Virus record (IMG/VR): IMGVR_UViG_3300044846_001093
Coordinates: 1 to 64,000 of that record
Source: a virus
Taxonomy: Duplodnaviria > Heunggongvirae > Uroviricota > Caudoviricetes
Length of the DNA stretch: 64,000 nucleotides
Strand: one strand, 5' to 3'
The notes under the pieces were generated by a model. That model was not told the DNA's origin. It worked only from the letters and a program-made list of their open reading frames with translations, and ran no database searches. Position numbers and translations under genes: made by a program. Positions 1,997 through 37,711 of the stretch are shown here, piece after piece. Each line of letters opens with the position of its first letter. The first letter of the stretch is position 1.

Positions 1997-2091
1997 GGTG
2001 ACATATGTTTCCTGATTTTCTTTTGCGACCCTTGTATTTCATCTTGGGTTTTCTTGTGTGCGCTAATCTTTTTCTTTATGGAGTTATCTAA

Positions 2092-2889
2092 ATGAATCGT
2101 TATCTAAAACTTGGCGTTATCGCCGGGGCTGTTGCTTTGACTTCCGCATGTACTCGGATTGAGACTGGTGAGGTCGGTGTTCGTGTCGGCTTTGATAAGC
2201 AGGTGCAGTCTGGTGAGTTGCTGCCCGGCTCGTTCAATCAGTCCATCGTTGGTACTATCCTGACATTCCCAGTCAAGGACGTAAACGTGGTCCTGGAGAA
2301 TATGACGCCCGTTGCAAAAGACAACAGCACAATGAAAGACTTGGACGCTGTGGTTGTTTACAACATCAATTCTGCACAGGTTGCAGAGTTGTATAGTACA
2401 AAGAACAAATCGTTCCATGCTGAATTCAAAGGCGACACCTATGTGATGTATAATTACATTGTGCAAAACGCACGGAATGCCATCTACAAATCCGCACGAA
2501 TGTATGAAGCATTGGACATGGCTGATAACCGTACGGAAATGGAAAACTATATCAAGGATGAAATTCAGCGAAACCTTGCTGAGGAAAAACTTGACGGTAG
2601 TATCACCATCTCTCAAGTCATGATTCGTAACGTATTGCCTAGCGATACTGTAGTAGAATCTGCGAATGCATTGGTTCGTAGCAAAAACGAATTGAAGCAA
2701 AAGGAAGTGGAAGTAAAAACTGCTGAGGCTGAAAGCCGTCGTATGGCTGCATTGGCTAACAACTCAGGTAGTTCCATTGCATTCATGCAAGCCCAAGCCA
2801 TGTTGAATATCTCCGAAGGTATCAAGAATGGTCAAGTGCAAACGATTGTGGTGCCATCCAACTTCAATGCCTTGATGATGGGTAAGTAA
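2092..2889 (+). CDS. SPFH/band-7 (stomatin/prohibitin-like) domain lipoprotein, 265 aa
   Basis: Signal peptide with Cys (ALTSAC). N-terminal GEVGVRVGF...LLPG...V pattern typical of SPFH domains. Coiled-coil C-terminal half. Confidence 0.5.
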   Translation: MNRYLKLGVIAGAVALTSACTRIETGEVGVRVGFDKQVQSGELLPGSFNQSIVGTILTFPVKDVNVVLENMTPVAKDNSTMKDLDAVVVYNINSAQVAELYSTKNKSFHAEFKGDTYVMYNYIVQNARNAIYKSARMYEALDMADNRTEMENYIKDEIQRNLAEEKLDGSITISQVMIRNVLPSDTVVESANALVRSKNELKQKEVEVKTAEAESRRMAALANNSGSSIAFMQAQAMLNISEGIKNGQVQTIVVPSNFNALMMGK

Positions 2890-2988
2890 ATGAGTGACAA
2901 GCCATCCTATTGTTGCCAACGATGTGGTGAAATGATCGGATGGCTTGGTCGTATTATGCCTTTTCATAAGTGTAAGAAAAATGAGTGA
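2890..2988 (+). CDS. Tiny zinc-ribbon-like peptide, 32 aa (CCQRCG...HKC)
   Basis: TAAATG junction with the upstream gene and ATGA overlap with the downstream gene. Cys/His spacing. Confidence 0.3.
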   Translation: MSDKPSYCCQRCGEMIGWLGRIMPFHKCKKNE

Positions 2989-3304
2989 ACTCAAAACATA
3001 CTATTATATTCCAAACATCTGGGAACGTGATGAATTGGATGTTGAACATGCATTAGCATTTCAATCAAGTCGTGATATTGTTGCAGTTAACTTTGGTCAC
3101 AAATATGATGACCTTGAGTTGGATTGGTTAGTTGAAGACATGGCTCAGGACTATATCTCCAATCGTGATGGTTGGGAAGTCGCAGAACATTGGCAAGGCC
3201 AAGAGCGTGAATTTGCAGTATGGGATTCCGATAAAACCTTTATTGGTAAATTTGACGTTCTGCTGGAGTATGAGCCACGATTTACTGCATGGAAGAAAAA
3301 ATGA
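2981..3304 (+). CDS. Hypothetical early protein, ~107 aa
   Basis: Start taken at MSELK (ATGA overlap). Acidic, Trp-rich. Confidence 0.45.
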   Translation: MSELKTYYYIPNIWERDELDVEHALAFQSSRDIVAVNFGHKYDDLELDWLVEDMAQDYISNRDGWEVAEHWQGQEREFAVWDSDKTFIGKFDVLLEYEPRFTAWKKK

Positions 3305-3516
3305 ACGAACGAATCCAAGAATTCATCCTGCAAGCAACAGAGACAACTGATGTGTATAATCCTGATACGGGTATCACACATTACCGTGAATTCTTTGACC
3401 ACGAAAAGTTTGCCGAGTTGATTATCAAAGAGACTTTACAAGTTGCCAAAGCTGGCGTTGAGTTTGGTCCCAGTATGGAAAAAGCAGTTTACACATATTT
3501 CGGAGTTGAAGAATGA
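3301..3516 (+). CDS. MNERI/HFGVEE paralog family member 1, 71 aa
   Basis: MNERIQEF...EKFAELIIKE...YFGVEE. ATGA overlaps on both sides. Confidence 0.6.
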   Translation: MNERIQEFILQATETTDVYNPDTGITHYREFFDHEKFAELIIKETLQVAKAGVEFGPSMEKAVYTYFGVEE

Positions 3517-3788
3517 ACGAACGAATTAAACAACTTGCTGAACAGGCTACTACTATTGTAGATATGGTTGGTCCACAAGGCTATACCAGCAGCTATGCTA
3601 ACTTTGATCGAGAAAAGTTTGCCGAGTTGATTGTTAGGGAATGCATGAAAGAATCGATGGATGAGATTGTTGCTGATGAAGACATTGCTCAAGAAAACGA
3701 TCCTCTAATTAGAGAATATCTCAATGGCAATAATCAAGGCATCGTTGATGCGGTTGTTAGATTTAGAAATCATTTTGGAGTAAAGTAA
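3513..3788 (+). CDS. MNERI/HFGVEE paralog family member 2, 91 aa
   Basis: MNERIKQLAEQAT...EKFAELIVRECMK...NHFGVK. Confidence 0.6.
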   Translation: MNERIKQLAEQATTIVDMVGPQGYTSSYANFDREKFAELIVRECMKESMDEIVADEDIAQENDPLIREYLNGNNQGIVDAVVRFRNHFGVK

Positions 3789-3952
3789 TGTGGAATAAAT
3801 TCAAATCATTGCCGTTGTCTGTGCAGATATCAATCGGATTCATATTGTGTTTGGTGACCATTGCTATTATAGCATTTCCTCCAGCAGGAATTGTCCTTGG
3901 AACAATTGCGGCTATTTTTCGCATCTTCTATTATTTGACTGAGGGTAAGTAA
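3788..3952 (+). CDS. Small membrane peptide, 54 aa
   Basis: TAATG junction. Two hydrophobic segments. Confidence 0.3.
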   Translation: MWNKFKSLPLSVQISIGFILCLVTIAIIAFPPAGIVLGTIAAIFRIFYYLTEGK

Positions 3953-4170
3953 TGGCTAAAAGAAAAGAAGCTAAGAAGTTTATGTACGGCGTAGGCTTCT
4001 ATTGGGAAGGCGATAGTGGTCACGTAGGACTGTATGCTTCTGGCAGTGAAGTGTTCTATGGTACAATGGAAGAAGCTAAGAACTTCCAAGCATACTGTCA
4101 GCGCCACCAACGCTTGGGTGAAGATAAACGCGAGTATAAGATATTCCAACTTATCGAGGTACCAGAGTGA
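3952..4170 (+). CDS. Hypothetical early protein, 72 aa
   Basis: TAATG junction. Lys/Glu-rich. Confidence 0.5.
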   Translation: MAKRKEAKKFMYGVGFYWEGDSGHVGLYASGSEVFYGTMEEAKNFQAYCQRHQRLGEDKREYKIFQLIEVPE

Positions 4171-4182
4171 AAGAAATCAACA

Positions 4183-4377
4183 ATGAACGATAAAGAAAAT
4201 ATCAAAGCCGGTGCAGACATAAACGCGGGCGATGGTGGTTACAGTGTAGGCACTCAGGAAGCATATGAGGAGTTTGTCAAACTGCGAAACGAAGCCATAG
4301 CACTAGCCAAGAAAGAAGGTATCAAAGAACGCCATTATACCAACTCTGGTAAACCGATTGACTTTCCAGAAAAGTAA
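4183..4377 (+). CDS. Hypothetical early protein, 64 aa
   Basis: RBS-like gaaagaaatcaacaATG. Confidence 0.45.
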   Translation: MNDKENIKAGADINAGDGGYSVGTQEAYEEFVKLRNEAIALAKKEGIKERHYTNSGKPIDFPEK

Positions 4378-4418
4378 TACTTTAGTCTTACACCAAGTTT
4401 AGTCAGGTATTGGTTGAC
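4378..4418 (+). repeat. 41-nt perfect direct repeat (copy A), immediately 5' of promoter P5
   Basis: tactttagtcttacaccaagtttagtcaggtattggttgac, identical to 8776..8816. Confidence 0.8.
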
Positions 4419-4441
4419 AATTACCGAAAACCTGGTATAAT
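4414..4441 (+). promoter_or_regulatory. Early promoter P5 (cassette family)
   Basis: ggttgacaattaccgaaaacctggtataatagagcc. Confidence 0.75.
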
Positions 4442-4470
4442 AGAGCCATAGACAGTAAGAAAGACAAATC

Positions 4471-4659
4471 ATGGCCTTTGAATCAAAAATCCTCTCCCTC
4501 GTTGCTAAAGTCACCACTGATGCAGAATTCACCTGTGGTACTTTGTTTGTGACTTGCACTCCACGCGAAGCCGCACGAATCCAAACAATCTTGGAAAATC
4601 CCGCTTACGGTGTGATTGTCTCTCCAGTTGGTGATCAATTTGCTTTTGACTTTGTTTGA
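4471..4659 (+). CDS. Hypothetical early protein, 62 aa
   Basis: First ORF after P5. Confidence 0.5.
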   Translation: MAFESKILSLVAKVTTDAEFTCGTLFVTCTPREAARIQTILENPAYGVIVSPVGDQFAFDFV

Positions 4660-4773
4660 TAGGAGTTTTTATGTTTGAATTTTTAATCGTTGTTTTTGTT
4701 GTGTTGGTCTTGGTTGGCGGTGCTGTTAGTGGCTCCGTTGAGACCTTAGGTTAATCTTTTCTTTGGAGTTACC

Positions 4774-5070
4774 ATGAAAATCGCACGAACCATTCTTGAT
4801 CAAATCGGACAGTTGGACCCATGGGCCTTGGGTGCATGGGGTGCAGTAGACCTCACCGATATGGGTGATGGCTTACAATTCAAGACCACAGGTATGACAC
4901 CATTCAAGGGCTTTGTGTATATCCAATACAAGCCATGCCCTGACCTGTATAACGTGAAGTTTATCCAAGTCCGTAACGTAAAAGGCGTTCCTACAGTGAA
5001 AGTCCGCAAGATAGTGGTGGACGTGTATGCTGAGGACTTGATCCGCACGATTGATGAATTCGTAGGATGA
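4774..5070 (+). CDS. Hypothetical early protein, 98 aa
   Basis: RBS ggagttaccATG. Confidence 0.55.
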   Translation: MKIARTILDQIGQLDPWALGAWGAVDLTDMGDGLQFKTTGMTPFKGFVYIQYKPCPDLYNVKFIQVRNVKGVPTVKVRKIVVDVYAEDLIRTIDEFVG

Positions 5071-5074
5071 TATT

Positions 5075-5278
5075 ATGAAACTGAATAAATTTATTGAACA
5101 ATTGCAAAAACTCCAATCTGAGGGTCATGGCGATAAGGAAGTTTTCTATCGTCATGGTGCCTCTGGTGATTGTGGTAAACTGTCCTCAGCATTCATTACC
5201 GATGAAGTAGATGGTGATTGTGGACCATTTGACCTGGACGAAGGTGAAGAGTATGTTTCCATCTACGCAGGAAATTGA
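5075..5278 (+). CDS. Hypothetical early protein, 67 aa (acidic)
   Basis: Tightly packed after the upstream gene. Confidence 0.5.
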   Translation: MKLNKFIEQLQKLQSEGHGDKEVFYRHGASGDCGKLSSAFITDEVDGDCGPFDLDEGEEYVSIYAGN

Positions 5279-5293
5279 GTACTTTCCACTGAC

Positions 5294-5321
5294 TTGACAA
5301 TTACCTAGAACCTGGTATAAT
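5294..5321 (+). promoter_or_regulatory. Early promoter P6 (cassette family)
   Basis: gacttgacaattacctagaacctggtataatagagac. Confidence 0.75.
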
Positions 5322-5346
5322 AGAGACTTAGACAGAAAGATTCCAA

Positions 5347-5571
5347 ATGACCAAACAATTCATCCAAGTCAGTGCCCACAAAGACAGCAATAACTTTGCC
5401 CACTGGAGCAACCTGAGTATCATGGCAAGCATGGGTCTGACCGCTGAACAGGCCCTGCGCCGTTTGCAAGCCATGGCTGATAACTATGCCGAGAACGGTT
5501 ATACCATTGAGTGGATCCGTGAGGATTTTGATGCCGCTTACGAAGAAATGTATGGAGAGTTGTTTGTATGA
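5347..5571 (+). CDS. Hypothetical early protein, 74 aa
   Basis: First ORF after P6. Confidence 0.5.
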   Translation: MTKQFIQVSAHKDSNNFAHWSNLSIMASMGLTAEQALRRLQAMADNYAENGYTIEWIREDFDAAYEEMYGELFV

Positions 5572-5774
5572 CAAAAGTATACACTGTTGAGTTCCATGAC
5601 AAGACTATGGACTACCGTCTGGTGCGATGGACTACCATTAGCCCAGGTATTCGCTCGGGTGAAGATATAGAACGGTTTGACTCCGAAGACGAAGCTATGG
5701 ACGCGGCCGACTGGATGAACGCGGGTGAAGAGTGGGACCTGTACCACCAGTGTGAGTGTGAATTTGATAATTGA
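5568..5774 (+). CDS. Hypothetical early protein, 68 aa
   Basis: ATGA overlap. Confidence 0.5.
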   Translation: MTKVYTVEFHDKTMDYRLVRWTTISPGIRSGEDIERFDSEDEAMDAADWMNAGEEWDLYHQCECEFDN

Positions 5775-5789
5775 GTACTTTTACTATAC

Positions 5790-5817
5790 TTGACAATTAC
5801 CTGAAACCTGGTATAAT
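5790..5817 (+). promoter_or_regulatory. Early promoter P7 (cassette family)
   Basis: tacttgacaattacctgaaacctggtataatagaacc. Confidence 0.75.
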
Positions 5818-5844
5818 AGAACCATACCAGACAGAAAGACACCA

Positions 5845-6003
5845 ATGAGAACCTACCAAGCCTTCTACAAAAACCGCGTTATCACCGTGACTGCATCCAC
5901 CTCTTATGAGGCGCAGTTGAAAGCCGCAGCCGTGTTCAAAGCACGTAAGTCCTATGATGTTGCTATCGTGTTGGCTGATACACCTGTGGTTATGGTAGAC
6001 TGA
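5845..6003 (+). CDS. Hypothetical small early protein, 52 aa
   Basis: ATG 28 nt after the -10. Followed by a 38-aa hydrophobic ORF (6006..6122). Confidence 0.4.
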   Translation: MRTYQAFYKNRVITVTASTSYEAQLKAAAVFKARKSYDVAIVLADTPVVMVD

Positions 6004-6128
6004 TCATGTTTGACTTTATACTGGCCTTGATACAGGCCGTTTTGATTTTCCTGATCGTATCTTTATGGGTGATGTTTGCGATCATACCTATAGTCTACCA
6101 TCTTGTGAAATTAGTACTTTAGACTGAC

Positions 6129-6156
6129 TTGACAATTACCTAGAATCTGGTATAAT
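6129..6156 (+). promoter_or_regulatory. Early promoter P8 (cassette family)
   Basis: gacttgacaattacctagaatctggtataatagaacc. Confidence 0.75.
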
Positions 6157-6184
6157 AGAACCATACACCAGAGAAGGAAAGAAC

Positions 6185-6421
6185 ATGTACACAACAATTT
6201 GGTCAGGTCGCAATGTCCGTGCTGCATTGACAGTAAAGGTGCTCCAAGAGTCACCAGCAGCTATCAAATTCGTAGTAGCGGATAATGAAAAAGCTACCTT
6301 TTGGTTGCCAAAGAAAGCCTTGAAAATGGTGGATGAATGCTATGACTTAGCATTTTGGTTCACAAAAGGTGAGTATCTGGCCAGTCTGTTCAACCGTTAC
6401 GCTAATCACTATAAGGCTTGA
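6185..6421 (+). CDS. Hypothetical early protein, 78 aa
   Basis: First ORF after P8. Confidence 0.5.
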   Translation: MYTTIWSGRNVRAALTVKVLQESPAAIKFVVADNEKATFWLPKKALKMVDECYDLAFWFTKGEYLASLFNRYANHYKA

Positions 6422-6514
6422 TATGAGCAAACGAACTGGCTTGATCATATGGGCCGTTACAGCCCTTGCGTTTCATGTTGCGGCATTCTCATTGGCTTAT
6501 TTGGGATTACTGAA

Positions 6515-6781
6515 ATGAATGAACGAATTAAAGAACTTGCCAAAGAGGCTGCAAGAGAAATGAACGAAACTGGGACTTATTCAGAACCCAAATTTCAGGA
6601 AAAGTTCGCCGAGTTGATTGTTCAGGAATGTACCGCGGCATTATTTGATGAATCGGAAAGATTGTCTGGATTGTATTCGGACGAAGACAATTGGGACTCG
6701 GCTGAGGAATATGAAATTCGTTCAAATCAATGTATTGATGACATAGCATTGATTGAAAAACATTTCGGAGTTGAAGAATGA
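6515..6781 (+). CDS. MNERI/HFGVEE paralog family member 3, 88 aa
   Basis: MNERIKELAKEAA...EKFAELIVQECTA...KHFGVEE. The track ORF 6449..6781 carries a spurious N-terminal extension. Confidence 0.6.
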   Translation: MNERIKELAKEAAREMNETGTYSEPKFQEKFAELIVQECTAALFDESERLSGLYSDEDNWDSAEEYEIRSNQCIDDIALIEKHFGVEE

Positions 6782-7008
6782 ACCAAGTTTTAGTAAACCT
6801 GCTGTCTAATCGAGCAGTAAGATTGGGTGAGCACTCTTGGCAATGGGCTGAGAAAAAGACTGGCAATCCTTCCTTGAAAAATTCTGTGACTTCTCGTATG
6901 TTTCGATCCAATCTTGTAGAAGTGGTCGGTGCAGAAATGAAACTTACTGCTATGGGCCGTATAGTAGCAGAACAACTTATCGGAGTTGAGGAATGTTTAA
7001 GAAGCTAA
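6778..7008 (+). CDS. Hypothetical early protein, 76 aa
   Basis: ATGA overlap. C-terminus ...LIGVEECLRS echoes the family C-terminus. Confidence 0.45.
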   Translation: MNQVLVNLLSNRAVRLGEHSWQWAEKKTGNPSLKNSVTSRMFRSNLVEVVGAEMKLTAMGRIVAEQLIGVEECLRS

Positions 7009-7223
7009 TTGACATATTCAAAGAGCCCGAGCATGGCATAGTGAAGTTGAGTTTCATTGCCCTGGACGAGAATGGAGAACCCTATGAGGATATTGCAACA
7101 ATGCCATATCATACACAATACATTCAAAGTGATGTGGAAGCAAAGTTTGTGGCATTCATGAGTTTACGGAATCACCGAGTTGTTGAAATCACAATACTAG
7201 AAGTAATTAAAACAAGTGGATAA
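6993..7223 (+). CDS. Hypothetical early protein, 76 aa
   Basis: Overlaps upstream gene by 16 nt. Confidence 0.45.
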   Translation: MFKKLIDIFKEPEHGIVKLSFIALDENGEPYEDIATMPYHTQYIQSDVEAKFVAFMSLRNHRVVEITILEVIKTSG

Positions 7224-7227
7224 TATA

Positions 7228-7449
7228 ATGAACGAACGAATTCAAAAACTTGCTGAACAGGCTTCCGAAATAGATGGTGATGACCTTCTATATTACAATC
7301 CTGTATTTGCTGAAAAGTTCGCCGAGTTGATTGTGAAAGAATTTTCAAAGCAGGTTCAAATTGAAGGTCGCTTTGGGCTCGAACGAGACCAGACTTTGAT
7401 TCGGCTTTGCTGTGAAAATGCCAAGAAACATTTCGGAGTTGAAGAATGA
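7228..7449 (+). CDS. MNERI/HFGVEE paralog family member 4, 73 aa
   Basis: MNERIQKLAEQASE...EKFAELIVKEF...KHFGVEE. Confidence 0.6.
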   Translation: MNERIQKLAEQASEIDGDDLLYYNPVFAEKFAELIVKEFSKQVQIEGRFGLERDQTLIRLCCENAKKHFGVEE

Positions 7450-7595
7450 ACGAAAAGCAAATCGAAGCCCTGTTTGAATGGTTGGATCATCAAACATACA
7501 TTGGTGAACCCGGTACTGATGGTGAATACATTCGTATGGAAGAAATGCGTAAGTACCTACCTGAAGCAATTAAGAAAATTATGGAGCAGGAATGA
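7446..7595 (+). CDS. Hypothetical small early protein, 49 aa
   Basis: ATGA overlaps at both ends. Sequence begins MNEKQIEALFEW.... Confidence 0.35.
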   Translation: MNEKQIEALFEWLDHQTYIGEPGTDGEYIRMEEMRKYLPEAIKKIMEQE

Positions 7596-7774
7596 AAAAC
7601 ACCCAACTAGGTAAAGTCCTCACACAGGAGCACCACGACTACCTGATTTGCCTGAGGGATTCTGGTGAGACCAATATGTGGGGAGCTACACCATATATTG
7701 AACGGGAGTTTGGTGTACCATACGTGGATGCCAAGACTATCCTATTGGAGTGGATTGAGTATATGTCTAAGTGA
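7592..7774 (+). CDS. Hypothetical early protein, 60 aa
   Basis: ATGA overlap. Ends at the conserved TGAGTACTTT element. Confidence 0.45.
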   Translation: MKNTQLGKVLTQEHHDYLICLRDSGETNMWGATPYIEREFGVPYVDAKTILLEWIEYMSK

Positions 7775-7789
7775 GTACTTTTACTGTAC

Positions 7790-7817
7790 TTGACAATTAC
7801 CGGATTCCTGGTATAAT
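7790..7817 (+). promoter_or_regulatory. Early promoter P9 (cassette family)
   Basis: tacttgacaattaccggattcctggtataatagagtc. Confidence 0.75.
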
Positions 7818-7823
7818 AGAGTC

Positions 7824-8310
7824 ATACCAGAGAGAAATACTAAGGCAACAACAAGTACTAGAGTAGATGGAAACCGACCCACGCGAGAATGCGTGGGCTT
7901 TGCGAAAGCAACGATGCGAGAGTAAGTCGGTCCAGTAGGGTAAGGAAAGAAGTTGCTGGCGGAAAAGCTGCTGGCCAGGACAGAAGTTAGGAAACTAACG
8001 CCGTGTAATCCTGGCATCATATTGAAGCACATTAGATCCTTTAGTATTCGGGCTCCACGGACCAACGGGTACTATCCCTTTTAGTGTGCTTCAATATGAC
8101 ACAAAAGTACTCTTCATGGACAAGGCTAGGCACATATGAACGCATAGCCGAGCGCCTGCTGATAGGACAACCTAAGCCAAAGCTATGGGGTCGGCTGGTA
8201 GGACACCGCTTTGAGACAGGCACCAAGAGTCTACACAGGACACCTCAGAGCCGTAGGTGGCGCCTGTTCTGGCGACTCAAAGACAATCGCCAGAAATGAA
8301 TACTTTCTAC
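7824..8310 (+). ncRNA. Candidate structured non-coding RNA (~490 nt) transcribed from P9
   Basis: No plausible ORF on either strand between P9 and P10. Several strong helices: cccacgc/gcgtggg; 10-bp long-range ttgaagcaca/tgtgcttcaa; gccagga/tcctggc; ctggcga/tcgccag. Confidence 0.3.
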
Positions 8311-8314
8311 TGAC

Positions 8315-8342
8315 TTGACTCTTACCTGATTCCTGGTATAAT
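8315..8342 (+). promoter_or_regulatory. Early promoter P10 (TTGACT variant)
   Basis: ctgacttgactcttacctgattcctggtataatagagtc. Confidence 0.75.
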
Positions 8343-8401
8343 AGAGTCATACCAGAGAGAAAGATACCAAATCGTTTGAAGGATCGTTAAGGAGTAATGA
8401 T

Positions 8402-8584
8402 ATGGCTTACAATAATGGAAGCGGATATGACAAGGAAGCAGAATATGCTAAAAAGTCTATGACTGAATTGATCGCCATTCGTACCCAATTTGAATTGGCC
8501 GTGGTGAAACGTCCGAATGGTACATTCAATGAACACCTTGAATGGGTTAAGTTGAAAATTGCAGAACGCATTGGAAAGAAGTAA
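8402..8584 (+). CDS. Hypothetical early protein, 60 aa
   Basis: RBS taaggagtaatgatATG. Confidence 0.5.
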   Translation: MAYNNGSGYDKEAEYAKKSMTELIAIRTQFELAVVKRPNGTFNEHLEWVKLKIAERIGKK

Positions 8585-8585
8585 T

Positions 8586-8774
8586 ATGGCCGAAGTGAAG
8601 TTGGGAACACTGTATAAAGTCACAGTGACCGAATATGACTGTGGTGTCCAAAGGGTTGATGACAACGACACCAAGTATTTCACCACACTAGAGGAAGCGG
8701 AGAAGTATAAGGCACACTGGGAGACTGGTGGTAACCGCGAATGCTACTGGAGAGCCAGCATTACCAAAATGTGA
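8586..8774 (+). CDS. Hypothetical early protein, ~62 aa
   Basis: Start placed at MAEVKLG, immediately after the upstream stop. Confidence 0.45.
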   Translation: MAEVKLGTLYKVTVTEYDCGVQRVDDNDTKYFTTLEEAEKYKAHWETGGNRECYWRASITKM

Positions 8775-8775
8775 G

Positions 8776-8816
8776 TACTTTAGTCTTACACCAAGTTTAG
8801 TCAGGTATTGGTTGAC
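8776..8816 (+). repeat. 41-nt perfect direct repeat (copy B), immediately 5' of promoter P11
   Basis: Identical to 4378..4418. Confidence 0.8.
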
Positions 8817-8839
8817 TCTTACCGGATTCCTGGTATAAT
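8813..8839 (+). promoter_or_regulatory. Early promoter P11 (TTGACT variant)
   Basis: ggttgactcttaccggattcctggtataatagagtc. Confidence 0.75.
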
Positions 8840-8870
8840 AGAGTCATACCAGAGAGAAAGAGATACCAAG

Positions 8871-9053
8871 ATGAACTACACTGTCCAAGAACTCGCCCTC
8901 CAATACGCCGAAAAGCTGACCGCATATTACGAGGCTATGCAAAGCGACTGGGACGATAAAAGACGCCAAATCCAACGTGCGCGAGATGAAATGTATGCTG
9001 CACAAAACGCTTTGGCCTATGCCTGCGAACGCGCGGCTGAACTTCTGGCTTGA
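8871..9053 (+). CDS. Hypothetical early protein, 60 aa
   Basis: Start at MNYTVQEL after leader ...gagaaagagataccaag. Track ORF 8808 start lies upstream of the promoter. Confidence 0.5.
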   Translation: MNYTVQELALQYAEKLTAYYEAMQSDWDDKRRQIQRARDEMYAAQNALAYACERAAELLA

Positions 9054-9066
9054 ATAAGGAATTAAC

Positions 9067-9228
9067 ATGGAACCCCAATTGACTGTTGCGGAATTGATCC
9101 GCGTGTTGCAAGCATTGCCTAACCAGGACGCTTTGGTTGAGATGGCGATGAACCAAGAGTATCAGGACGCTGTGTATGCCTCGGACGTACATGTCTGGAG
9201 CGATGAACTGGTTATCATAGGAGAATAA
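9067..9228 (+). CDS. Hypothetical small early protein, 53 aa
   Basis: RBS aataaggaattaacATG. Confidence 0.4.
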   Translation: MEPQLTVAELIRVLQALPNQDALVEMAMNQEYQDAVYASDVHVWSDELVIIGE

Positions 9229-9231
9229 GAT

Positions 9232-9438
9232 ATGTCGTGGATATTAGATGGACAGAAAATCTCGGCTTGCTACCTTGGCATAGCCGTCACTGGTCGAGTT
9301 ATCTCCAGTCGCGTGAAGTATGGTGGCAGTGTCCAGTACTCCCTAGTACTGGACGAACCTGTCCAACTGCCATGGCGCACAGAATCTACCAGTTTTCTTC
9401 TGGTGGATAAGAACGAAGTTATTGAGGTGATTGGGTGA
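9232..9438 (+). CDS. Hypothetical early protein, 68 aa
   Basis: RBS ggagaataagatATG. Confidence 0.5.
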   Translation: MSWILDGQKISACYLGIAVTGRVISSRVKYGGSVQYSLVLDEPVQLPWRTESTSFLLVDKNEVIEVIG

Positions 9439-9702
9439 AGCATTACTTTGTGGTCTATAAGTCCTACCAAAGACCTGGGCTAGAGCACTTTGAGGTTGAT
9501 GCTGCTAATAAAGCCGAAGCCCGGAGACTGTTCCTGGAAGCCAACATCAAGCACGATTACATTATCAAGATCATCCTATGAGACAATGGACTGTTAGAGT
9601 TTACGATGGGTTTTCTACTCAAGAATTCCAGCGATACGGAACCTATGAACAAGTCCGCACAACCCTAGCTGGTTATCCTCCTGGATATATTTGGAGCATT
9701 CA

Positions 9703-9981
9703 ATGAACGAACGAATTAGAGAATTGTCGGATATCGCATACAAAAACCATCTAGCCAGGAATCCACATTCCTCCTTTGGTCGCCGATACGATTATGATAA
9801 AGAATTCGCCGAGTTGATTGTTCAGGAATGCATGACAATGTGCGACAATGTATCTGCTGATTATTTTAAGCATCGCAAAGCCGCAGATGATTTTCGAGAT
9901 AAGAATATCTATGCCGAAGGTGAATCGGCTTGTGACGAGGTACGATACGAGATTAAGAAACATTTCGGAGTTGAAGAATGA
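9703..9981 (+). CDS. MNERI/HFGVEE paralog family member 5, 92 aa
   Basis: MNERIRELSDIAY...KEFAELIVQECMT...KHFGVEE. Confidence 0.6.
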   Translation: MNERIRELSDIAYKNHLARNPHSSFGRRYDYDKEFAELIVQECMTMCDNVSADYFKHRKAADDFRDKNIYAEGESACDEVRYEIKKHFGVEE

Positions 9982-10181
9982 CCCTCTTAGCAATAATCGG
10001 CTTCATCGCCATTTGTATTGTCGCCATGTACTTTACCTTTACCAGCATCGTGTGGCTTTACGGCGCTTCACTCTTCGGTGCAGGTTTGACCAGACTCTTA
10101 GTCACGGGAGCCATCGCAGGTGGCATGTGGACTCTAGCATGGCATCTTTCACCATTCACAATCTCAGTAAATCTTACCTAA
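9978..10181 (+). CDS. Small integral membrane protein, 67 aa
   Basis: ATGA overlap. Two TM-like segments. Confidence 0.45.
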   Translation: MTLLAIIGFIAICIVAMYFTFTSIVWLYGASLFGAGLTRLLVTGAIAGGMWTLAWHLSPFTISVNLT

Positions 10182-10195
10182 CACGGAGTCCAAGA

Positions 10196-10480
10196 ATGAA
10201 CGAACGAATTAAAGAACTTGCAGAACAGGCTGGATTGAAAGTTGAATACTTTATGGCCAATCCACCCAAGCCCTTTCAGATTCTCGGCAGCACTGAGCAG
10301 TTTGAAAAGTTCGCCGAGAAGATTGTGAAAGAATGTACTGAACAAATCAAGACACAGGGTATCAACGCCTCTAGTGAAGATTATGGCGATTATGAAATAG
10401 GATTTAACGCAGGGTTATTTCATGCCCTTCGCACAACCAAAGAACATTTCGGAGTGGATTATAATCCAGTTGAAGAATGA
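10196..10480 (+). CDS. MNERI/HFGVEE paralog family member 6, 94 aa
   Basis: MNERIKELAEQAGL...EKFAEKIVKECTE...EHFGVDYNPVEE. RBS acacggagtccaagaATG. Confidence 0.6.
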   Translation: MNERIKELAEQAGLKVEYFMANPPKPFQILGSTEQFEKFAEKIVKECTEQIKTQGINASSEDYGDYEIGFNAGLFHALRTTKEHFGVDYNPVEE

Positions 10481-10722
10481 AAACAGTATACCTGGTCTGT
10501 AGCACAGTTGATCTTGGTTATCATGCCGAGTATGGTTACACCTCAATTGAAAAAGCTGAAGCTAAGATGGTTGAACTGGTCACCCTGGCTAAAGAGCGGT
10601 ACATCAATTCAGCCATGACACCATCCCTTTATAACCTATTTCCTGTATACGAAAAGGTTGTCCAAGACGCCGAACGTTATCATGAGAAATATGAAATTGC
10701 ATCAGTGGAGATTGAAGAATGA
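10477..10722 (+). CDS. Hypothetical early protein, 81 aa
   Basis: ATGA overlap. Last gene before P12. Confidence 0.5.
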   Translation: MKTVYLVCSTVDLGYHAEYGYTSIEKAEAKMVELVTLAKERYINSAMTPSLYNLFPVYEKVVQDAERYHEKYEIASVEIEE

Positions 10723-10737
10723 GAACTTTCTTCTGAC

Positions 10738-10765
10738 TTGACAATTCCACCAGTCCTGGTATAAT
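10738..10765 (+). promoter_or_regulatory. Early promoter P12 (cassette family); no obvious downstream ORF
   Basis: tgacttgacaattccaccagtcctggtataatagaatt. Confidence 0.7.
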
Positions 10766-11006
10766 AGAATTGTCGAACAGAGGGGGATGGACGGTGGGAG
10801 TGGGCGTCCATATAGTCTGCTTCTTGTATGGAAGCAAAATGCTTATACTTGCTTCATCCTAAGAAAGCACCAGGTAACCTACGGATAGGTGCTACCATAC
10901 TAACCAGTGCAATAACCATCAATGGATCGTATATCCGAAATCCTTGTCCTGATTCCTCTTTAGAATCAACAACTTACAACCGCCCAAACCGAGAATTTAT
11001 CAAAAT

Positions 11007-30887: not shown

Positions 30888-30895
30888 TATTTATG
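30888..30895 (-). promoter_or_regulatory. Near-consensus late promoter (CATAAATA)
   Basis: Same 23-nt geometry to ATG as the consensus late promoter at 44012. One mismatch to TATAAATA. Confidence 0.25.
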
Positions 30896-32876
30896 TTTTG
30901 ATAATCTGTGATGAAAGCTCAGGTTCAGCTTGAAATGTATCAGCTTTCTCTTTGCTAGATGACTTAGAATTCTTAGCCAAATCTTTTACGATGCCAGCAG
31001 TCTTAGATAGTGATCGTCTTGCTGGTGTGCTAGTCTTTTCATAAGAATCTTCTGGCTCCTGCTCTTCCTTTAGCCCTGCTTGTTTACGTGCAGCAGTCTT
31101 CGCAAGATGCTTGACTCTAGACATTGCTGTGTGTTTTGCACCAGATTTGTCTGTTGTCACTTTCTTTGTGTTTTTGACATAAGGACCATCAAATGGAACT
31201 TCTTGGCGCTCTTTACCCAAGTCTGTTGCAGTTTGTTCAGCAGTAATGATAGGTGTTGGCTTCATAGGCTTCTTAGCTGGTCCAGATGTGAAACGACCTG
31301 CGTCTGGATTCTCGTTGGAGTTGCTAGTTTGACCAACTTCTTCCGCCACAACACTCTCAGCTTTGTACTTCTTAAACATATCAGTACCTTTTCTTGGCGC
31401 AAGACCTTGTGTGCGATATGCAGCAGCAGAAACAGCAGCGTATCGTTTCGTCTTCTTACTCGCTTCAGCGTTCGTGCCAGCACCTGGCAACTCTCTTGCG
31501 CTGTCCATTGCTTTATTGACATAAGAGCCAAGAGTTTTCTTAGACAACTCATCAATCTGCTCAACTTCTTCCTTCATATCATGTTTCTTCTTGAGATACT
31601 TTTCAACCTTGCGATCATATTCGCCTTTAGGTGATTTAGGTGTGCTGGTCTTCGCTTTGTCTAGAATTCTTTTATGTGCAGGATCAACTTCTTCCTTCAT
31701 CCCTGTACGGCGAGACTCACCTTCAATGTATGAGTGTAGAGATTCAACATCACTTTGAACTTTAGATAGTTTGTTCTGATACCACTCTTCAATTTCACCA
31801 CCCATCTCAATGAACTCAAGAATTTCTTCAGCAGCATACTTGATGAAATGCAGTTGCGTTTGAGCCATCTCAGTCTTTTCTGTGGTATCCGATTCAGCTT
31901 GCTCATTGATTTCAGCTTGTTTCAAAATACCTTTGACCAATGGTGCCTTCAATTGGCGATGACGCGGTACTGGAATGTGATGCTTTGCATCTGGATGTGT
32001 GTATACATCATGACTGCCTGATGTACGTGAGAGTTTCCAACCACGCTTCTTCAGATGTTGATGCACAGCACGGGTATCCATGTTAGCACCAGGCATTTCT
32101 TCTAGTTGTTCAACTTCCTCATGCTTCAATGTTCTCATTCCCGGATCAATGTTGCCTTTATTATCATAACGATGCTGAACACCTTTCTTACCTTGAGCTT
32201 CTAAATCTTTCATAGCCTTATTAGCGTCTGGATAGTTTGAATGTGTGCTAGTTTTGATCCAGTCACCTTTAGAATTTCTGTGACCTACGTGAATTGTTTC
32301 TTCCGTCACAACTTCAACAGACTCATCCCACTGCTTACCACGTGCCGCATTTCTAGCCGCAGCTTTTGCACCATAGTTCTGTTGTAGCCTCTCAGCATCA
32401 TACTTGTGTACTGTGGCGCCTTTAACCTTCTTTGCCACGTTCTCTGCATGAGACTTGGTTTCAAATGTCTTCCAGTGACGACCATTGACATGCACCGAGT
32501 GATAGTCTTTGGCATCAGCTTCGGCTAGTTCAACTTCCTCATTAGTCTGTGAGTTTTTCAAATCTTTCTCGGATGGTGCACCCTCTGAGCCAGGCTTACG
32601 CATACGTTCACCTGAGCCGCTCTTGATTCTTTCACGCTTGGCATGAATGTTGGCCCACAGACCAGCTTCTTCAATGGTTTCTTCTTTGACGGATTTGCCA
32701 GCCGATTTATCACCATAAGTTGCTTGACGTTTTTTAGCAAGGTCGATCTTATCTTTGACAGCTTTTCCTAACTTAGGATCAGCCTTCAACATCCATCCTG
32801 TTCCAAGAGACTTTTTACCCTCTTCCAAAATGTCCTCGCCGCGGACAAGACTTGCAATCTGCTTGAAACTTCTCAT
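30891..32876 (-). CDS. Large Lys-rich protein with embedded HicA/YcfA-like domain, 661 aa
   Basis: HQHLKKRGWKLSRTSGSHDVYTHPDAKHHIPVPRHRQLKAPLVKGILKQA matches the HicA fold consensus. Carries one EEVEQIDELSKKTLGSYVNKA module. Otherwise predicted disordered and K/E-rich. Confidence 0.55.
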   Translation of the reverse strand: MRSFKQIASLVRGEDILEEGKKSLGTGWMLKADPKLGKAVKDKIDLAKKRQATYGDKSAGKSVKEETIEEAGLWANIHAKRERIKSGSGERMRKPGSEGAPSEKDLKNSQTNEEVELAEADAKDYHSVHVNGRHWKTFETKSHAENVAKKVKGATVHKYDAERLQQNYGAKAAARNAARGKQWDESVEVVTEETIHVGHRNSKGDWIKTSTHSNYPDANKAMKDLEAQGKKGVQHRYDNKGNIDPGMRTLKHEEVEQLEEMPGANMDTRAVHQHLKKRGWKLSRTSGSHDVYTHPDAKHHIPVPRHRQLKAPLVKGILKQAEINEQAESDTTEKTEMAQTQLHFIKYAAEEILEFIEMGGEIEEWYQNKLSKVQSDVESLHSYIEGESRRTGMKEEVDPAHKRILDKAKTSTPKSPKGEYDRKVEKYLKKKHDMKEEVEQIDELSKKTLGSYVNKAMDSARELPGAGTNAEASKKTKRYAAVSAAAYRTQGLAPRKGTDMFKKYKAESVVAEEVGQTSNSNENPDAGRFTSGPAKKPMKPTPIITAEQTATDLGKERQEVPFDGPYVKNTKKVTTDKSGAKHTAMSRVKHLAKTAARKQAGLKEEQEPEDSYEKTSTPARRSLSKTAGIVKDLAKNSKSSSKEKADTFQAEPELSSQIIKT

Positions 32877-34874: not shown

Positions 34875-35252
34875 TTAGCAATTCCATTTTCTTAGTGCGA
34901 GAGCTTTACGAGACGGCTCTCCGTTAGGTTTCTTCATCGGACCTTCCACTCCACCCATTCTAGCGCAGAATGACTTGCGACGGTTAGCAGCTTTACTGCC
35001 TGGTGTCAATTTTGATGGTGGTGTTGTGACTGGTGCTTTTAGATTGCCGCCATCTTTTCTGTTGTAGTAGTCACGGCCCTTTTGAGTTAGACCACCAGTA
35101 GAACTCTTCAGTCCTTTGGCATCAACTGCGGCTTCCACTACAGTTTCTTCTTTGACACAAGAATCGGGTGAGTATGCTTTCTTACCTGGAACAGGCTTGT
35201 ATTTTGACCAGCAACGACCGGCTTCATTGATAAAATCTGTAAATTTTTTCAT
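34875..35252 (-). CDS. Basic Lys/Pro/Gly-rich protein, 125 aa
   Basis: ATGA overlap with the 820-aa gene. Confidence 0.4.
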   Translation of the reverse strand: MKKFTDFINEAGRCWSKYKPVPGKKAYSPDSCVKEETVVEAAVDAKGLKSSTGGLTQKGRDYYNRKDGGNLKAPVTTPPSKLTPGSKAANRRKSFCARMGGVEGPMKKPNGEPSRKALALRKWNC

Positions 35253-37711
35253 AAGTAGTTCTTTGCTTTAAATGTGCTTAGTGATATGCCCTGTTTAGCA
35301 AGTTCATCCTGTTTCTGTGCACCAATTGATGCTGTGGTTGAATCGCCACCCATTTCAGCAACTGGCTTCTTCTTCAAAGGATTCACTTTGCCACTCTTGT
35401 CATTGATCTCACCCATGTCGCGGCCGATGCTTTCGCCACCAGCCGCCATTGACATGCCAACTTCTACGCCTTTGTCGATGGCTTCTTTGAATGAGCTTTT
35501 GGCTTGCGAGAGGGTGAGCTTGCCTTTATAGCGGCTGGCTTCTTGGATGTTTTTGGAGCTGGCTTTGGCTCCTGTACTACCACTGATGCTTCTACCTTCG
35601 GTAATGGTTGTGGCTCCGGTAATACTACTGGCTCTGGTACTACCACTGGTGCTTCCACCTTCGGTAATGGTTGTGGCTCTGGTTCCACTGGTGGTTTGCT
35701 CTTCACAAAGAAACTTTTCAGAAATTTCAACATTTACATTCTCCTTCAATTTGACTATGTAACCTTTGTCTGTCTTGACCACTTCACCACCTTTGGTGTG
35801 TGCGTCTTTAGCAGCATTGTTTCGTATTGCATATACTTTAGGCTTATTGCCAGATGCAATATATGTAGCTCCGTCTTTTACGACTGTTCTTTCACCACTA
35901 ATACTTTCAGAGACAAACATAGGCTTGCCGAGCGTGAGAAGATTGTATGCACCAGAATCGGACATTACTATCTGATCCACGTGCTCTTCAACTTCTTGCT
36001 CCTCAGCATCTCCATTGCCTGTCATCATCTGTATTGTTTTTTGCAATTCTTCTGGAGTATCAGCTTTGAAAGTGACTGAAACAGCTTCAAAAAGATTCTG
36101 GAAATCTTCATTGATAGACTCTTTGACTGGTTTCTTGCGCGTGGGCTTCTGGCTACTAGCTCCACTCATAGGAACTTCAGCAGTCTTCTTGATCATCTTT
36201 TGCTGTTCAGTGTGTGTTGGATCCTGCACCAAAGTTCCATGAACTGAGTGATGCGTGACTTTACCATTCTTGCCGTATCTGCCATAGCCATAGTATTGAA
36301 GACCAAGGCGTCTAGCTTCATCAGTTGCTTTGTTTTCACCCTCAGCGGAGTGTGGAAGAGACTGTTCTGTGCCTTTCTTAGGAATAGGCAGTGTGTCTTT
36401 CTTCTGTAGTTCACCAGCAACCCATGCTTTAGCTTGTTCGTTCTTAGGTGGTGCTTGCACAAACTTTTGAACAGTCTTGAAGACTTTATCCATTTCCTCT
36501 TTTTTGGCTTTGACAACTTCTGGTGGTGCATTGCGCAAGTCTTCGGAGTTATCAAATTCAACATAACTGTTGCCAAACAGTTTAGCCATATCTGGGCGTG
36601 AATTGTGTACTGCGTCCCACTTTTCTTTACGAATGTTCTCGGGAACTGTACGACCACCTCTTTGCCCACGTTCAACGTTTCTCTGTGCAGAAACTTCATC
36701 TTGTGTGACAACTGCGACCATAGAAGTTTCGTAGCCAATCTCTTCTAGGTTCTTCTTTATCTTAGCATACTTTGCAGGATCATCGCCTGTGCCATTGATA
36801 ATGATACCGTTACGACCTAACAGCGCCAGCTTTTGCTTTAACTCTGTCATGTCTTTTGCTTTACCGCGAACAAGGGTTCGTGCGTCAGCTTCAGTCTCTG
36901 GCATTTTCTTGTCCAGATTGTTCTTATCCATCAGGAACTCAAGTGCTTTGTCTGAGTTGATTTCAATCAATCCATGACCAGCGAGTGTGTTATCCAGCAC
37001 ATAGTCTTTGCCTGAGCCTGGACCACCAGATAGAAACACAGCCTTGAAAATGCCTTTATCGTGGACACCTTCAGATAGAATCATCTGAATTTGTGATCGG
37101 AAGTCTTCTTTGACTTGCATTCCCTTACGCACATCGCTATACAATTCTTTAGCGTGTTCTGGTGCTACGTGACTTGGAATGCCTTTTTTAAATTCTTTGA
37201 AGTTGCCTTTTGATGCATGACTGCGCATCTTGGATGCAGACATACCAGATACGCCCTCAGCATCAGGATCGCGTTCACCAGCGGAGTGTACGTGAATACC
37301 ACGGAACTTGAAGTATCCATGCGTACCTTTTACGCCATTGTATTTGTGTAATATCTTTTCGTACTCACCAGTTCTATCGGAGCCTGCAACCATGTGCAAG
37401 TGTGTAGCGCCAGCTTTGTGGAGTTTTGATGCTTGAGCCAGAAAGTTTGGATGTTCTTTACTGGAGGTTGTGATATTCGTGTCAGGAAAATATCGTTGTG
37501 CGTGTTTGACTTTTTGCTCACCTGAGAGTGGATTCTTCTCAGCGTCCTGTGAATGCGATAGAACAACGTGGTGTGTTCCCTTCACAGATTTAGCAACATC
37601 TTTGACTTTATCAACCAGTTTTGCATGACCGGTTGTTGGTGGATTCATGCGGCCGAAAGCAAGGACCGCATGTTTTTCTGTTGTTTCTTCTAGATATTCT
37701 ATAAACTTCAT
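35249..37711 (-). CDS. Multidomain protein: N-terminal NadM-like NMN adenylyltransferase (HxGH NTase) + P-loop kinase + long Lys/Ser/Thr-rich disordered tail, 820 aa
   Basis: FGRMNPPTTGH matches NadM/NadR GRFxPxHxGH. SGMSASKMR matches ISGTxIR. Walker A LSGGPGSGKDY, and IINGTGDD. C-terminal TTITEGxSxSGST repeats. Confidence 0.55.
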   Translation of the reverse strand: MKFIEYLEETTEKHAVLAFGRMNPPTTGHAKLVDKVKDVAKSVKGTHHVVLSHSQDAEKNPLSGEQKVKHAQRYFPDTNITTSSKEHPNFLAQASKLHKAGATHLHMVAGSDRTGEYEKILHKYNGVKGTHGYFKFRGIHVHSAGERDPDAEGVSGMSASKMRSHASKGNFKEFKKGIPSHVAPEHAKELYSDVRKGMQVKEDFRSQIQMILSEGVHDKGIFKAVFLSGGPGSGKDYVLDNTLAGHGLIEINSDKALEFLMDKNNLDKKMPETEADARTLVRGKAKDMTELKQKLALLGRNGIIINGTGDDPAKYAKIKKNLEEIGYETSMVAVVTQDEVSAQRNVERGQRGGRTVPENIRKEKWDAVHNSRPDMAKLFGNSYVEFDNSEDLRNAPPEVVKAKKEEMDKVFKTVQKFVQAPPKNEQAKAWVAGELQKKDTLPIPKKGTEQSLPHSAEGENKATDEARRLGLQYYGYGRYGKNGKVTHHSVHGTLVQDPTHTEQQKMIKKTAEVPMSGASSQKPTRKKPVKESINEDFQNLFEAVSVTFKADTPEELQKTIQMMTGNGDAEEQEVEEHVDQIVMSDSGAYNLLTLGKPMFVSESISGERTVVKDGATYIASGNKPKVYAIRNNAAKDAHTKGGEVVKTDKGYIVKLKENVNVEISEKFLCEEQTTSGTRATTITEGGSTSGSTRASSITGATTITEGRSISGSTGAKASSKNIQEASRYKGKLTLSQAKSSFKEAIDKGVEVGMSMAAGGESIGRDMGEINDKSGKVNPLKKKPVAEMGGDSTTASIGAQKQDELAKQGISLSTFKAKNYL
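35567..35704 (-). repeat. Imperfect in-frame tandem repeat (~45-nt unit, about 2.5 copies) inside the 820-aa gene
   Basis: ggctc[ct]ggtactaccactg[ag]tgcttc[tc]accttcggtaatggttgt repeated. Encodes TTITEG.S.SGST units. Confidence 0.6.

Follow-up and report, generated by a model that had tools for sequence, protein, structure and literature searches.

The subject of this paper is the interval 7824-8310 of a 64,000-nucleotide (nt) stretch of viral DNA (positions 1 to 64,000 of the IMG/VR record IMGVR_UViG_3300044846_001093), which is referred to as the window in the following. The window derives from a T4-like myovirus, with a B-family DNA polymerase that is 51% identical to those of cyanophages, and also codes for a DnaB-type helicase and a class I ribonucleotide reductase. 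From about 2,000 to 11,000, it contains a block of very small genes on the plus strand, interspersed with near-identical consensus sigma-70 promoters. Within this block, the interval had been described in an initial annotation as a region free of open reading frames (ORFs) that encodes a single structured RNA of about 490 nt. The analysis presented here identified it as an early-promoter cassette, in which two conserved structured RNAs, designated module 1 (7838..8015) and module 2 (8017..8099), precede a small conserved gene for a protein (8096..8299) and are fused to its start codon, all on the plus strand. The non-coding part in front of the gene is called the leader. By blastn against 50,697 deposited phage genomes, no nucleotide match was obtained for the window or the leader.

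Organization of the early cassette

The cassette lies behind the early promoter P9 (7790..7837, plus strand), with the -35 box TTGACA at 7790-7795 and the extended -10 box TGgTATAAT ending at 7817. The following promoter, P10 (8315..8362, plus strand), contains TTGACT at 8315-8320 and TATAAT at 8337-8342 and drives the next gene, 8402-8584. Both promoters had been predicted before and are real, and each of them belongs to a repeated cassette of 48 nt with copies at 7790, 8315 and 8812 (6 search matches versus 0.01 expected), within which a core of 29 nt is identical at 7807, 8332 and 8829. Within every repeat, CTGGTAT, which shares nucleotides with the -10 box, forms pairs with ATACCAG just downstream; for P9, this inverted repeat in the DNA (7808-7814 and 7824-7830) spans the likely start site at about 7824. 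The short leader common to the promoter units is AUACCAGAGAGAAA, and the sequence previously designated as a conserved leader behind P9 is the tail of the 48-nt repeat.

The 3' part of the interval codes for a protein. The frame 8096-8299, which had been dismissed as Arg-rich and was also missed by gene callers, encodes a very basic protein of 67 amino acids (MTQKYSSWTRLGTYERIAERLLIGQPKPKLWGRLVGHRFETGTKSLHRTPQSRRWRLFWRLKDNRQK). In a protein search, 48 homologues of 55-81 amino acids with 58-82% identity were identified, and the alignment of 22 homologues contains 14 invariant columns, for example SLHRTPQSRRWRLFWRLK. The core of the family, ..YERIAERLL.GQPKPK...SLHRTPQSRRWRLFWRLK, is shared by the window protein. 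Conservation on the protein level is also evident from the comparison of the window to the related contigs L099 and L100, where four of the five nucleotide differences are synonymous third-position changes in the frame of the small gene. For the protein, no PHROG match and no significant Pfam match were obtained, and a weak match to Toxin_YhaV was seen in three of the 22 aligned members (best E = 0.072). In five further loci (L104-L106, L190, L191), the gene is an ordinary, tightly packed early gene, and in L099 and L100, the equivalent of 8133-8299 comes after an ATG that shares nucleotides with the stop codon of the preceding gene. The helix CTGGCGA (8269-8275) and TCGCCAG (8287-8293), which had been listed as part of the presumed RNA, can be formed, but the stem-loop (8269..8293, plus strand) lies in the last 10 codons of the small gene, is without comparative support as an RNA element, and is not called a terminator.

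These results leave little of the proposal that 7824-8310 constitutes one non-coding RNA, possibly a ribozyme or an intron, a reading that is now hardly credible. It was correct in placing structured non-coding RNA directly behind a consensus early promoter; GNRA tetraloops are present in addition, and in comparison to shuffled sequences, z = -5.5 was obtained for the folding of the whole interval on the plus strand (-2.75 on the minus strand). The non-coding RNA, however, comprises only about 262 nt (7838-8099), consists of two independent modules that belong to separate families and occur separately elsewhere, and is followed by 204 nt of coding sequence (8096-8299), where selection on the protein level refutes a single RNA. 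Moreover, the low folding energy is mostly due to the hairpin at 8017-8099 (z = -6.2), and without the hairpin, only z = -1.6 and z = -1.35 were obtained for 7838-8012 and 8105-8299, respectively. A decayed protein gene had been named as one finding that would refute the single RNA, which applies by half, since an intact and conserved small gene fills the 3' 40% of the interval.

With Rfam, at the gathering threshold for the whole window and at E <= 10 for 7600-8500, only chance microRNA-like matches on the hairpin were obtained, and none of the covariance models of known ribozymes and riboswitches matched. ARAGORN identified zero tRNAs and zero tmRNAs in the window, so that the earlier statement that no tRNA, tmRNA or RNase P signature is recognised was confirmed by Rfam and ARAGORN. 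The idea of a group I intron has to be abandoned, with no Rfam match even at E <= 10 and with complete flanking genes. Also rejected was an ORF of 94 amino acids annotated by gene callers antisense to the leader (7781-8065, minus strand), which is spurious: its matches are five proteins with 27-88% query cover, all of which are copies of the same RNA or promoter sequence. A comparable case was observed in L096 (2380-2631), where gene callers annotate a protein of 83 amino acids (P0319) antisense to P9 and module 1, the "homologues" of which are only antisense translations of other copies of the promoter or of module 1, so that this annotation is spurious as well.

The comparison to related contigs revealed that the interval is a mobile early-gene cassette in a variable region of the genome, bounded by two copies of the promoter unit. 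Five contigs with identical flanking proteins, obtained from different samples, are identical to the window across the gap, and contigs nearly identical to the window include JGI 3300042516 Ga0453198_0001954 and ENA ERZ27272083 k141_616521. In L099 and L100, which lack only the leader, 7775-8132 is missing, and L097 contains neither the leader nor the small gene. In L074, which is about 91% identical, 7767 is joined almost directly to 8584 (7775-8585 missing), and in L075-77, the P9 unit is followed by the gene that lies behind the 8812 unit in the window (7830-8811 missing). The boundaries of these insertions and deletions coincide with the promoter repeats, a behaviour which has been reported for the PeSL elements of T4-type phages (PMC2839356, PMC4122927). 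Among the relatives of the two flanking genes (50 loci), the leader was absent. Exact-word scans with four pieces of the leader gave zero matches in collections that did not contain the samples of the identical JGI contigs. Among them, an exact 21-mer of the window was absent from metagenome_contigs, yet the identical JGI contigs were found via the protein index, so that a negative result there is weak evidence of absence. Entries for the two proteins that flank the cassette were found in 36 and 52 index blocks.

Two RNA families of phage tRNA arrays

Module 1 is a conserved structured RNA of about 177 nt, as indicated by its homologues, by covariation and by its occurrence in tRNA arrays. Copies of 7827/7837-8012 with 86-89% identity are present between tRNA genes in L192 and L193, two of the contigs from which "homologues" of the antisense ORF originate. 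An invariant 18-mer of module 1 was identified in 24 viral and 51 metagenome loci, and with an nhmmer profile, 81 copies were detected at E < 1e-10 in the retrieved loci. The copy in the window is of full length, covering model positions 1-201 with E = 8.9e-43. The consensus structure contains eight helices, and two of its hairpins are variable. In the window, the long-range helix H1 is formed by 7844-7850 and 7951-7957, H2 by 7873-7877 and 7927-7931, H3 by 7878-7884 and 7891-7897, H4 by 7900-7903 and 7908-7911, H7 by 7974-7980 and 8009-8015, and H8 by 7986-7990 and 7995-7999; H4 and H8 are both closed by a GAAA loop, and all helices lie on the plus strand. Two of the helices proposed in the initial annotation reappear here, CCCACGC/GCGTGGG as H3 and GCCAGGA/TCCTGGC as H7. 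Both pairings are present, but the loop of the former is GAGAAT and consists of six nucleotides instead of five.

The structure was supported by compensatory changes in 21 of the 39 pairs. In the alignment, 97.4% of the cells are paired compared to 34-40% when the partners are slid, and 0/500 shuffles reached the observed values. The row of the window fits the consensus helices with two exceptions, one A.A at the end of H1 and a shift of the alignment at the outer end of H7, where the window forms the 7-bp helix (bp, base pairs) 7974-7980/8009-8015. At all ten loci that were checked, module 1 is located inside a tRNA array on the strand of the tRNAs, and in four of them it starts 3-4 nt past the end of a tRNA. 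No Rfam family matched module 1. A reading as an RNase P-like RNA, on the basis of GGAAAC.. and ACAGAA motifs, was rejected, as the pairing topology differs and Rfam was empty. The location in tRNA arrays suggests that module 1 is a trans-acting stable RNA with a role tied to tRNA or RNA metabolism.

Module 2 follows directly, with module 1 ending at 8015 and module 2 starting at 8017. It is a hairpin of 83 nt with an uninterrupted 20-bp stem (8017-8036/8080-8099), the core of which is the pairing of TTGAAGCACA with TGTGCTTCAA that had been recognised before, and its 43-nt interior folds into a small stem-loop of its own. When IMG/VR was searched with the pattern TTGAAGCACA, 40-70 nt, TGTGCTTCAA (10+10 nt), 44 viral contigs were obtained, all of which share flanks that were not part of the pattern, namely AUA before the 5' arm and YU after it, with their mirror image at the 3' arm. 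When up to three mismatches per arm were tolerated, 88 hairpins were identified in 46 fetched sequences (the 44 pattern loci, L071 and the window), with not more than five per locus. The window matches both consensus arms of the family, AUAUUGAAGCACAUU (8019-8033) and AGUGUGCUUCAAUAU (8083-8097), exactly. The interiors comprise 30-120 nt and differ between the copies, and in several of them a T-arm-like GGUUCGAAUCC is found. The hairpins of the family fill the spacers of large tRNA arrays and start 2-3 nt past the CCA end, and the RNA strand predicted from the folding energy is the strand of the tRNAs in about 31 of 39 hairpins. A hairpin arm of this type is present within 45 nt after module 1 in 13 of the 81 module 1 copies, including those of the window and L193. 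The family hairpins were unmatched in Rfam, two of them gave no match in cultured phages when used as blastn queries, and the stem sequence retrieved only unrelated primers and siRNAs from the literature.

In one subfamily of the hairpins (L001, L002, L017, L021), a self-complementary box of 8 nt in the interior changes and yet remains a palindrome, as judged by eye (GGCAUGCC versus GACUAGUC), which hints at a dimerisation or kissing contact. The tRNA arrays with hairpins or module 1 also hold a tmRNA gene (L020, 5093-5467) and a suppressor-type tRNA with the anticodon CUA (L216, 9453-9527), and tRNAs with four-base anticodons occur in the same kind of arrays (L208, 9849-9948; L247, 3395-3478).

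At the 3' end of module 2, RNA and gene share their sequence. The 3' arm of the hairpin ends with ...CAAUAUGA, the AUG of which opens the small gene, so that the start codon (8096-8098) is paired with 8018-8020 at the foot of the hairpin. A Shine-Dalgarno-like sequence ahead of this codon was not seen on inspection. The occlusion of the AUG, a junction between hairpin and gene that is exact to the base, and a small gene that is intact in 5/5 carriers would all be expected if the leader acted mainly in cis. As a 5' untranslated region, it would control stability and translation of the small-gene mRNA, with the hairpin locking the AUG until it is opened by an RNase III-type nuclease or a helicase, and no trans-acting RNA would be of importance at this locus. 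This explanation is considered unlikely. In eight other phage loci, the small gene is leaderless and translationally coupled to its upstream neighbour and therefore does not need control by the hairpin, and both modules are conserved where no downstream ORF exists. A control of this type would also be compatible with modules that act in trans, as a secondary effect.

Positional linkage of the hairpin family to the gene of a Ro60-like protein

A link of the hairpin family to a protein was provided by L071, where the stem of a variant hairpin starts 70 nt after a gene for a protein of 478 amino acids with the domains DUF2828 and DUF7788, just before a tRNA. Among 80 further loci with a DUF2828 gene, 43 contain hairpins of the family, with 71 hairpins in 1.21 Mb compared to 3 in 0.40 Mb of loci chosen otherwise. 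When L071 was included, an uninterrupted stem of 16-23 bp was found to start 30-73 nt after the stop codon in 34 of the 81 loci. In a set of stems selected by position and not by sequence, 17 of the 19 pairs are changed on both sides; since the pairing itself was a criterion for this set, only the covariation is evidence. Of the helices in the initial annotation, covariation supports H3, H7 and the long hairpin stem, while the helix at the end of the small gene is not supported. In L071 (1748-1774) and at the equivalent positions of L107-L143, a small conserved hairpin (GACUGAUGU...ACAUCAGUC) was additionally observed between the stop codon of the DUF2828 gene and the long-stem hairpin, ending with ..GUCAC just before CCAUAU.

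The arms of the long-stem elements are near-perfect inverted repeats, which recur many times per genome and are located in rearranging regions, as might be expected for elements acting on the level of the DNA, like palindromic recombination sites or protein-binding sites. Such a role is very improbable, since the stem is longer on the strand of the gene in 32 of the 34 loci, a result of G.U pairs in the RNA that correspond to A.C mismatches on the other strand. Furthermore, the orientation of the elements tracks the strand of the tRNA or DUF2828 gene, and the interiors carry compensatory changes of their own, as seen by eye.

On the basis of its predicted structure, the DUF2828/DUF7788 protein is Ro60-like. 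With an alignment of 100 sequences, an AlphaFold model with a predicted local distance difference test score (pLDDT) of 91.8 and a predicted template modelling (TM) score of 0.90 was obtained, compared to a pLDDT of 54.6 with a shallow alignment. In a Foldseek search of the PDB, the nine best matches were all Ro60, Rsr or TROVE proteins, namely frog and human Ro60, Deinococcus Rsr and the TROVE-domain crystal structure 9kop; they extend over the full length with about 510-570 aligned columns and TM values of 0.57-0.62 (best E = 1.6e-8). The model consists of a HEAT-repeat ring and a C-terminal vWA domain with a metal ion-dependent adhesion site, as in the Ro60/TROVE fold, and the DxSxS motif of this site (D280, S282, S284) is invariant in the DUF2828 proteins. 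Pfam vWA_Ro60 was matched by 15 of 100 members; tests of Ro60 likeness based on the sequence only were negative or weak. The corresponding PHROG 850 is named 'RNA-binding protein', and homologues are present in 711 cultured phage records, with those of mycobacteriophages annotated as 'Ro-like RNA binding protein'. A literature search on DUF2828 revealed nothing relevant.

Ro60 proteins and their RNAs have been described for several phages. The genes for YrlA Y RNAs share their strand with the Ro60 gene and lie within 4 kb of it, which is true for phages too (PMC4201824), and a Thermus phage Ro60 was shown to bind two phage-encoded Y-like RNAs and the host PNPase (PMC12135203). For the Listeria phage protein CKA15_055, the best HHpred match was D. 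radiodurans Rsr, and Y RNAs were suspected nearby (PMC12282133). The gene for gp130 of phage Bas63, a protein with structural likeness to Ro60, immediately precedes tRNA genes, and gp130 acts against the ppl defence system (bioRxiv 10.1101/2024.10.10.617714). It is probable that gp130 of this Felix-O1-type phage belongs to the DUF2828 family.

Taken together, these comparisons point to module 2 as a Y-RNA-like RNA. A helix formed by the two ends of the RNA is present both in the window, with its 20-bp stem, and in the family, where the consensus is kept while the pairs covary, and a Ro60-like gene in the vicinity on the same strand was identified for the 34 loci mentioned above. Several observations weigh against this assignment. 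For the window copy, no Ro60-like gene was found within the 64 kb by tblastn, and a walk outward from the window yielded a contig of 1.6 kb only. The hairpin of the window has no match to Rfam YrlA or Y_RNA at E <= 10; with the YrlA model, weak matches in L039 fall on tRNAs and not on the hairpins, and none was obtained in L071. The stem is perfect, without the bulged helix or the GNCGAAN0-1G motif that are recognised by Ro60/Rsr in known Y RNAs, and the interior in the window contains neither a T-loop motif nor a tRNA-like domain. The strict hairpin is missing downstream of the gene in 47 of the 81 DUF2828 loci, and it does not follow the Ro60-like gene in the cultured Synechococcus phage BUCT-ZZ01 and Aeromonas phage Aeh1. 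Since DUF2828 genes usually adjoin tRNA arrays, the association of hairpin and protein could partly be due to a shared neighbourhood. For module 1, the clue to its function is limited to its genomic context.

In BUCT-ZZ01, the region downstream of the Ro60-like gene (L188, 4080-4330) was found to contain one normal tRNA and two tRNA-like genes that are unannotated in the record. An identical insert, GAAAACGCATTCTGTAAAGAATGAATTCTGCAATC, splits both tRNA-like genes, and the inserted sequence that comes behind it differs between the two.

Proposed origin and relation to known systems

Apart from the window, members of both large module families are found in uncultured T4-like phages, where they lie between tRNA genes and have the same orientation as these. 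As the best explanation, with a probability of roughly 60%, the interval is regarded as a mobile early cassette that combines a Y-RNA-like module 2 with a trans-acting module 1 and a small gene with an occluded AUG. A piece of a tRNA array containing module 1 and the hairpin may have been moved behind the early promoter by recombination between promoter cassettes, and the start codon of the small gene would have become the junction with the transferred segment. The cassette would then be transcribed by the host polymerase as one RNA early in infection. In the tRNA arrays, the enzymes responsible for the trimming of the neighbouring tRNAs might also set both modules free as small stable RNAs; as no flanking tRNAs are present at the locus in the window, the release here would require another cut. 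A candidate for this cut is RNase III, an enzyme that cleaves duplexes of the kind formed by the 20-bp helix. Module 2 could then act like a Y RNA, with the conserved closing helix as the handle for the Ro60-like ring protein of the phage and the variable interior as the effector-specific part. In cis, the intact hairpin would hide the AUG of the small gene, so that translation might depend on cleavage or unwinding.

The same origin would also allow for a leader without function, which remained as a recent recombination scar after a tRNA-array fragment was dropped between the promoter cassettes and tolerated. The cassette is absent from the closest relatives, zero tRNAs and no Ro60-like gene are present in the window, and the hairpin over the AUG could even harm the small gene. 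All five carriers of the full cassette are identical to the window, so that selection on the modules at this location is not visible, an observation which also speaks against the proposed function. A scar is nevertheless rather improbable. Both modules are complete, full-length members of their families, as documented by the nhmmer match of module 1 and by the hairpin arms, and the tandem of module 1 and hairpin recurs in L193 and in other copies of module 1. Furthermore, the flanking proteins are recorded in many index blocks, and the cassette was kept unchanged in the five contigs from different samples.

Beyond the cassette, it can be proposed only tentatively that the widespread DUF2828 Ro60-like proteins of phages have the long-stem hairpins as their RNA partners. 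The tRNA arrays would then contain libraries of hairpins with a common protein handle and interchangeable interiors, and module 1 would be a second class of phage RNA with a new function, working together with them or with tRNA repair and processing. The window would represent a case in which such RNAs are transferred to early promoters in the form of mobile cassettes. In annotations of phage tRNA arrays, tRNAs and the spacers between them are usually all that is listed, and to most of the 711 cultured records with a Ro60-like 'RNA-binding protein', no RNA partner has been assigned. A stretch considered as empty contained a real gene and led to two RNA families that are new to Rfam, with many copies and clear covariation, one of them being linked by position to the gene of a Ro60-like protein. 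If this linkage reflects binding, candidate RNAs with a conserved stem to mutate are at hand, and with them a direct route to the question of how phage Ro60 particles act, including the reported role in anti-defence.

Other genes of the window were noted in addition. Three small early paralogues on the plus strand (6449-6781, 7216-7449 and 9691-9981) have the motif ...FAELIV.EC... and the ending KHFGVEE in common, and short stretches with 90-100% nucleotide identity recur in many relatives. On the minus strand, the gene 23-595 codes for a product of 190 amino acids, for which a match to Pfam PF26128 (Gad2) was listed in a precomputed table. Since Gad2 is an anti-Gabija protein family, 23-595, located at the border of the early region, may have an anti-defence function. 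Also on the minus strand, 30891-32876 encodes a protein of 661 amino acids with a toxin-type HicA domain at residues 271-323, and 35249-37711 one of 820 amino acids with a Zeta-toxin/AAA_33 kinase domain at residues 223-367.

Three known systems can be compared to the elements described here. The PeSL cassettes of T4-like phages resemble the promoter units of the window in that near-consensus sigma-70 early promoters are present as conserved repeats in a hyperplastic region (PMC2839356, PMC4122927), and the small ORFs at their sides occur in some close relatives but not in others. The window has the same combination of a repeated consensus early promoter with a stem-loop at the boundaries of insertions and deletions. 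It differs in the position of the stem-loop, since the inverted repeat overlaps with both the -10 box and the start site, whereas the stem-loop of the published PeSL is a terminator ahead of the promoter (PMC4122927). Moreover, the cargo in the window consists of RNA modules and an ORF, in contrast to an ORF alone in the PeSL.

Module 1 can be compared to rnaC and rnaD of phage T4 (species 1 and 2), which are also non-tRNA RNAs of 120-240 nt, encoded in a T4-type phage between tRNA genes and on the same strand as these, and which, like module 1, are presumably released by tRNA-processing enzymes. With rnaD, module 1 shares four short collinear motifs, GAAACCG, GUAAGUCG, GUAAGGAA and CAGAA..ACGNCG. 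As homologues, however, rnaC and rnaD were rejected, since neither nhmmer (E <= 10) nor the covariance model R1 of module 1 with the filters off gave a match on L073 3054-3172 and 2909-3047. The comparison therefore suggests a likeness of kind and context only, and homology is not supported.

The closest comparison for module 2 is to the Y RNAs, represented by YrlA (RF02553) and by Yrl1 and Yrl2 of the Thermus phage phiLo. The hairpin family is distinguished from these by a stem that is an uninterrupted duplex of 16-23 bp with its own consensus CCAUAUUGAAGCACAUU, by a candidate partner from a divergent DUF2828/DUF7788 branch instead of an annotated TROVE protein, and by its copy number, with as many as five hairpins at a fetched locus, dispersed over the tRNA arrays. 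In common with the Y RNAs, the hairpins are closed by a long helix of their two ends, and this closing helix is kept among paralogues with different interiors, which are tRNA-like in some members. Like the Y RNAs, a part of the hairpins is also encoded near a Ro60-fold gene and on its strand, beside the tRNA genes of the phage.

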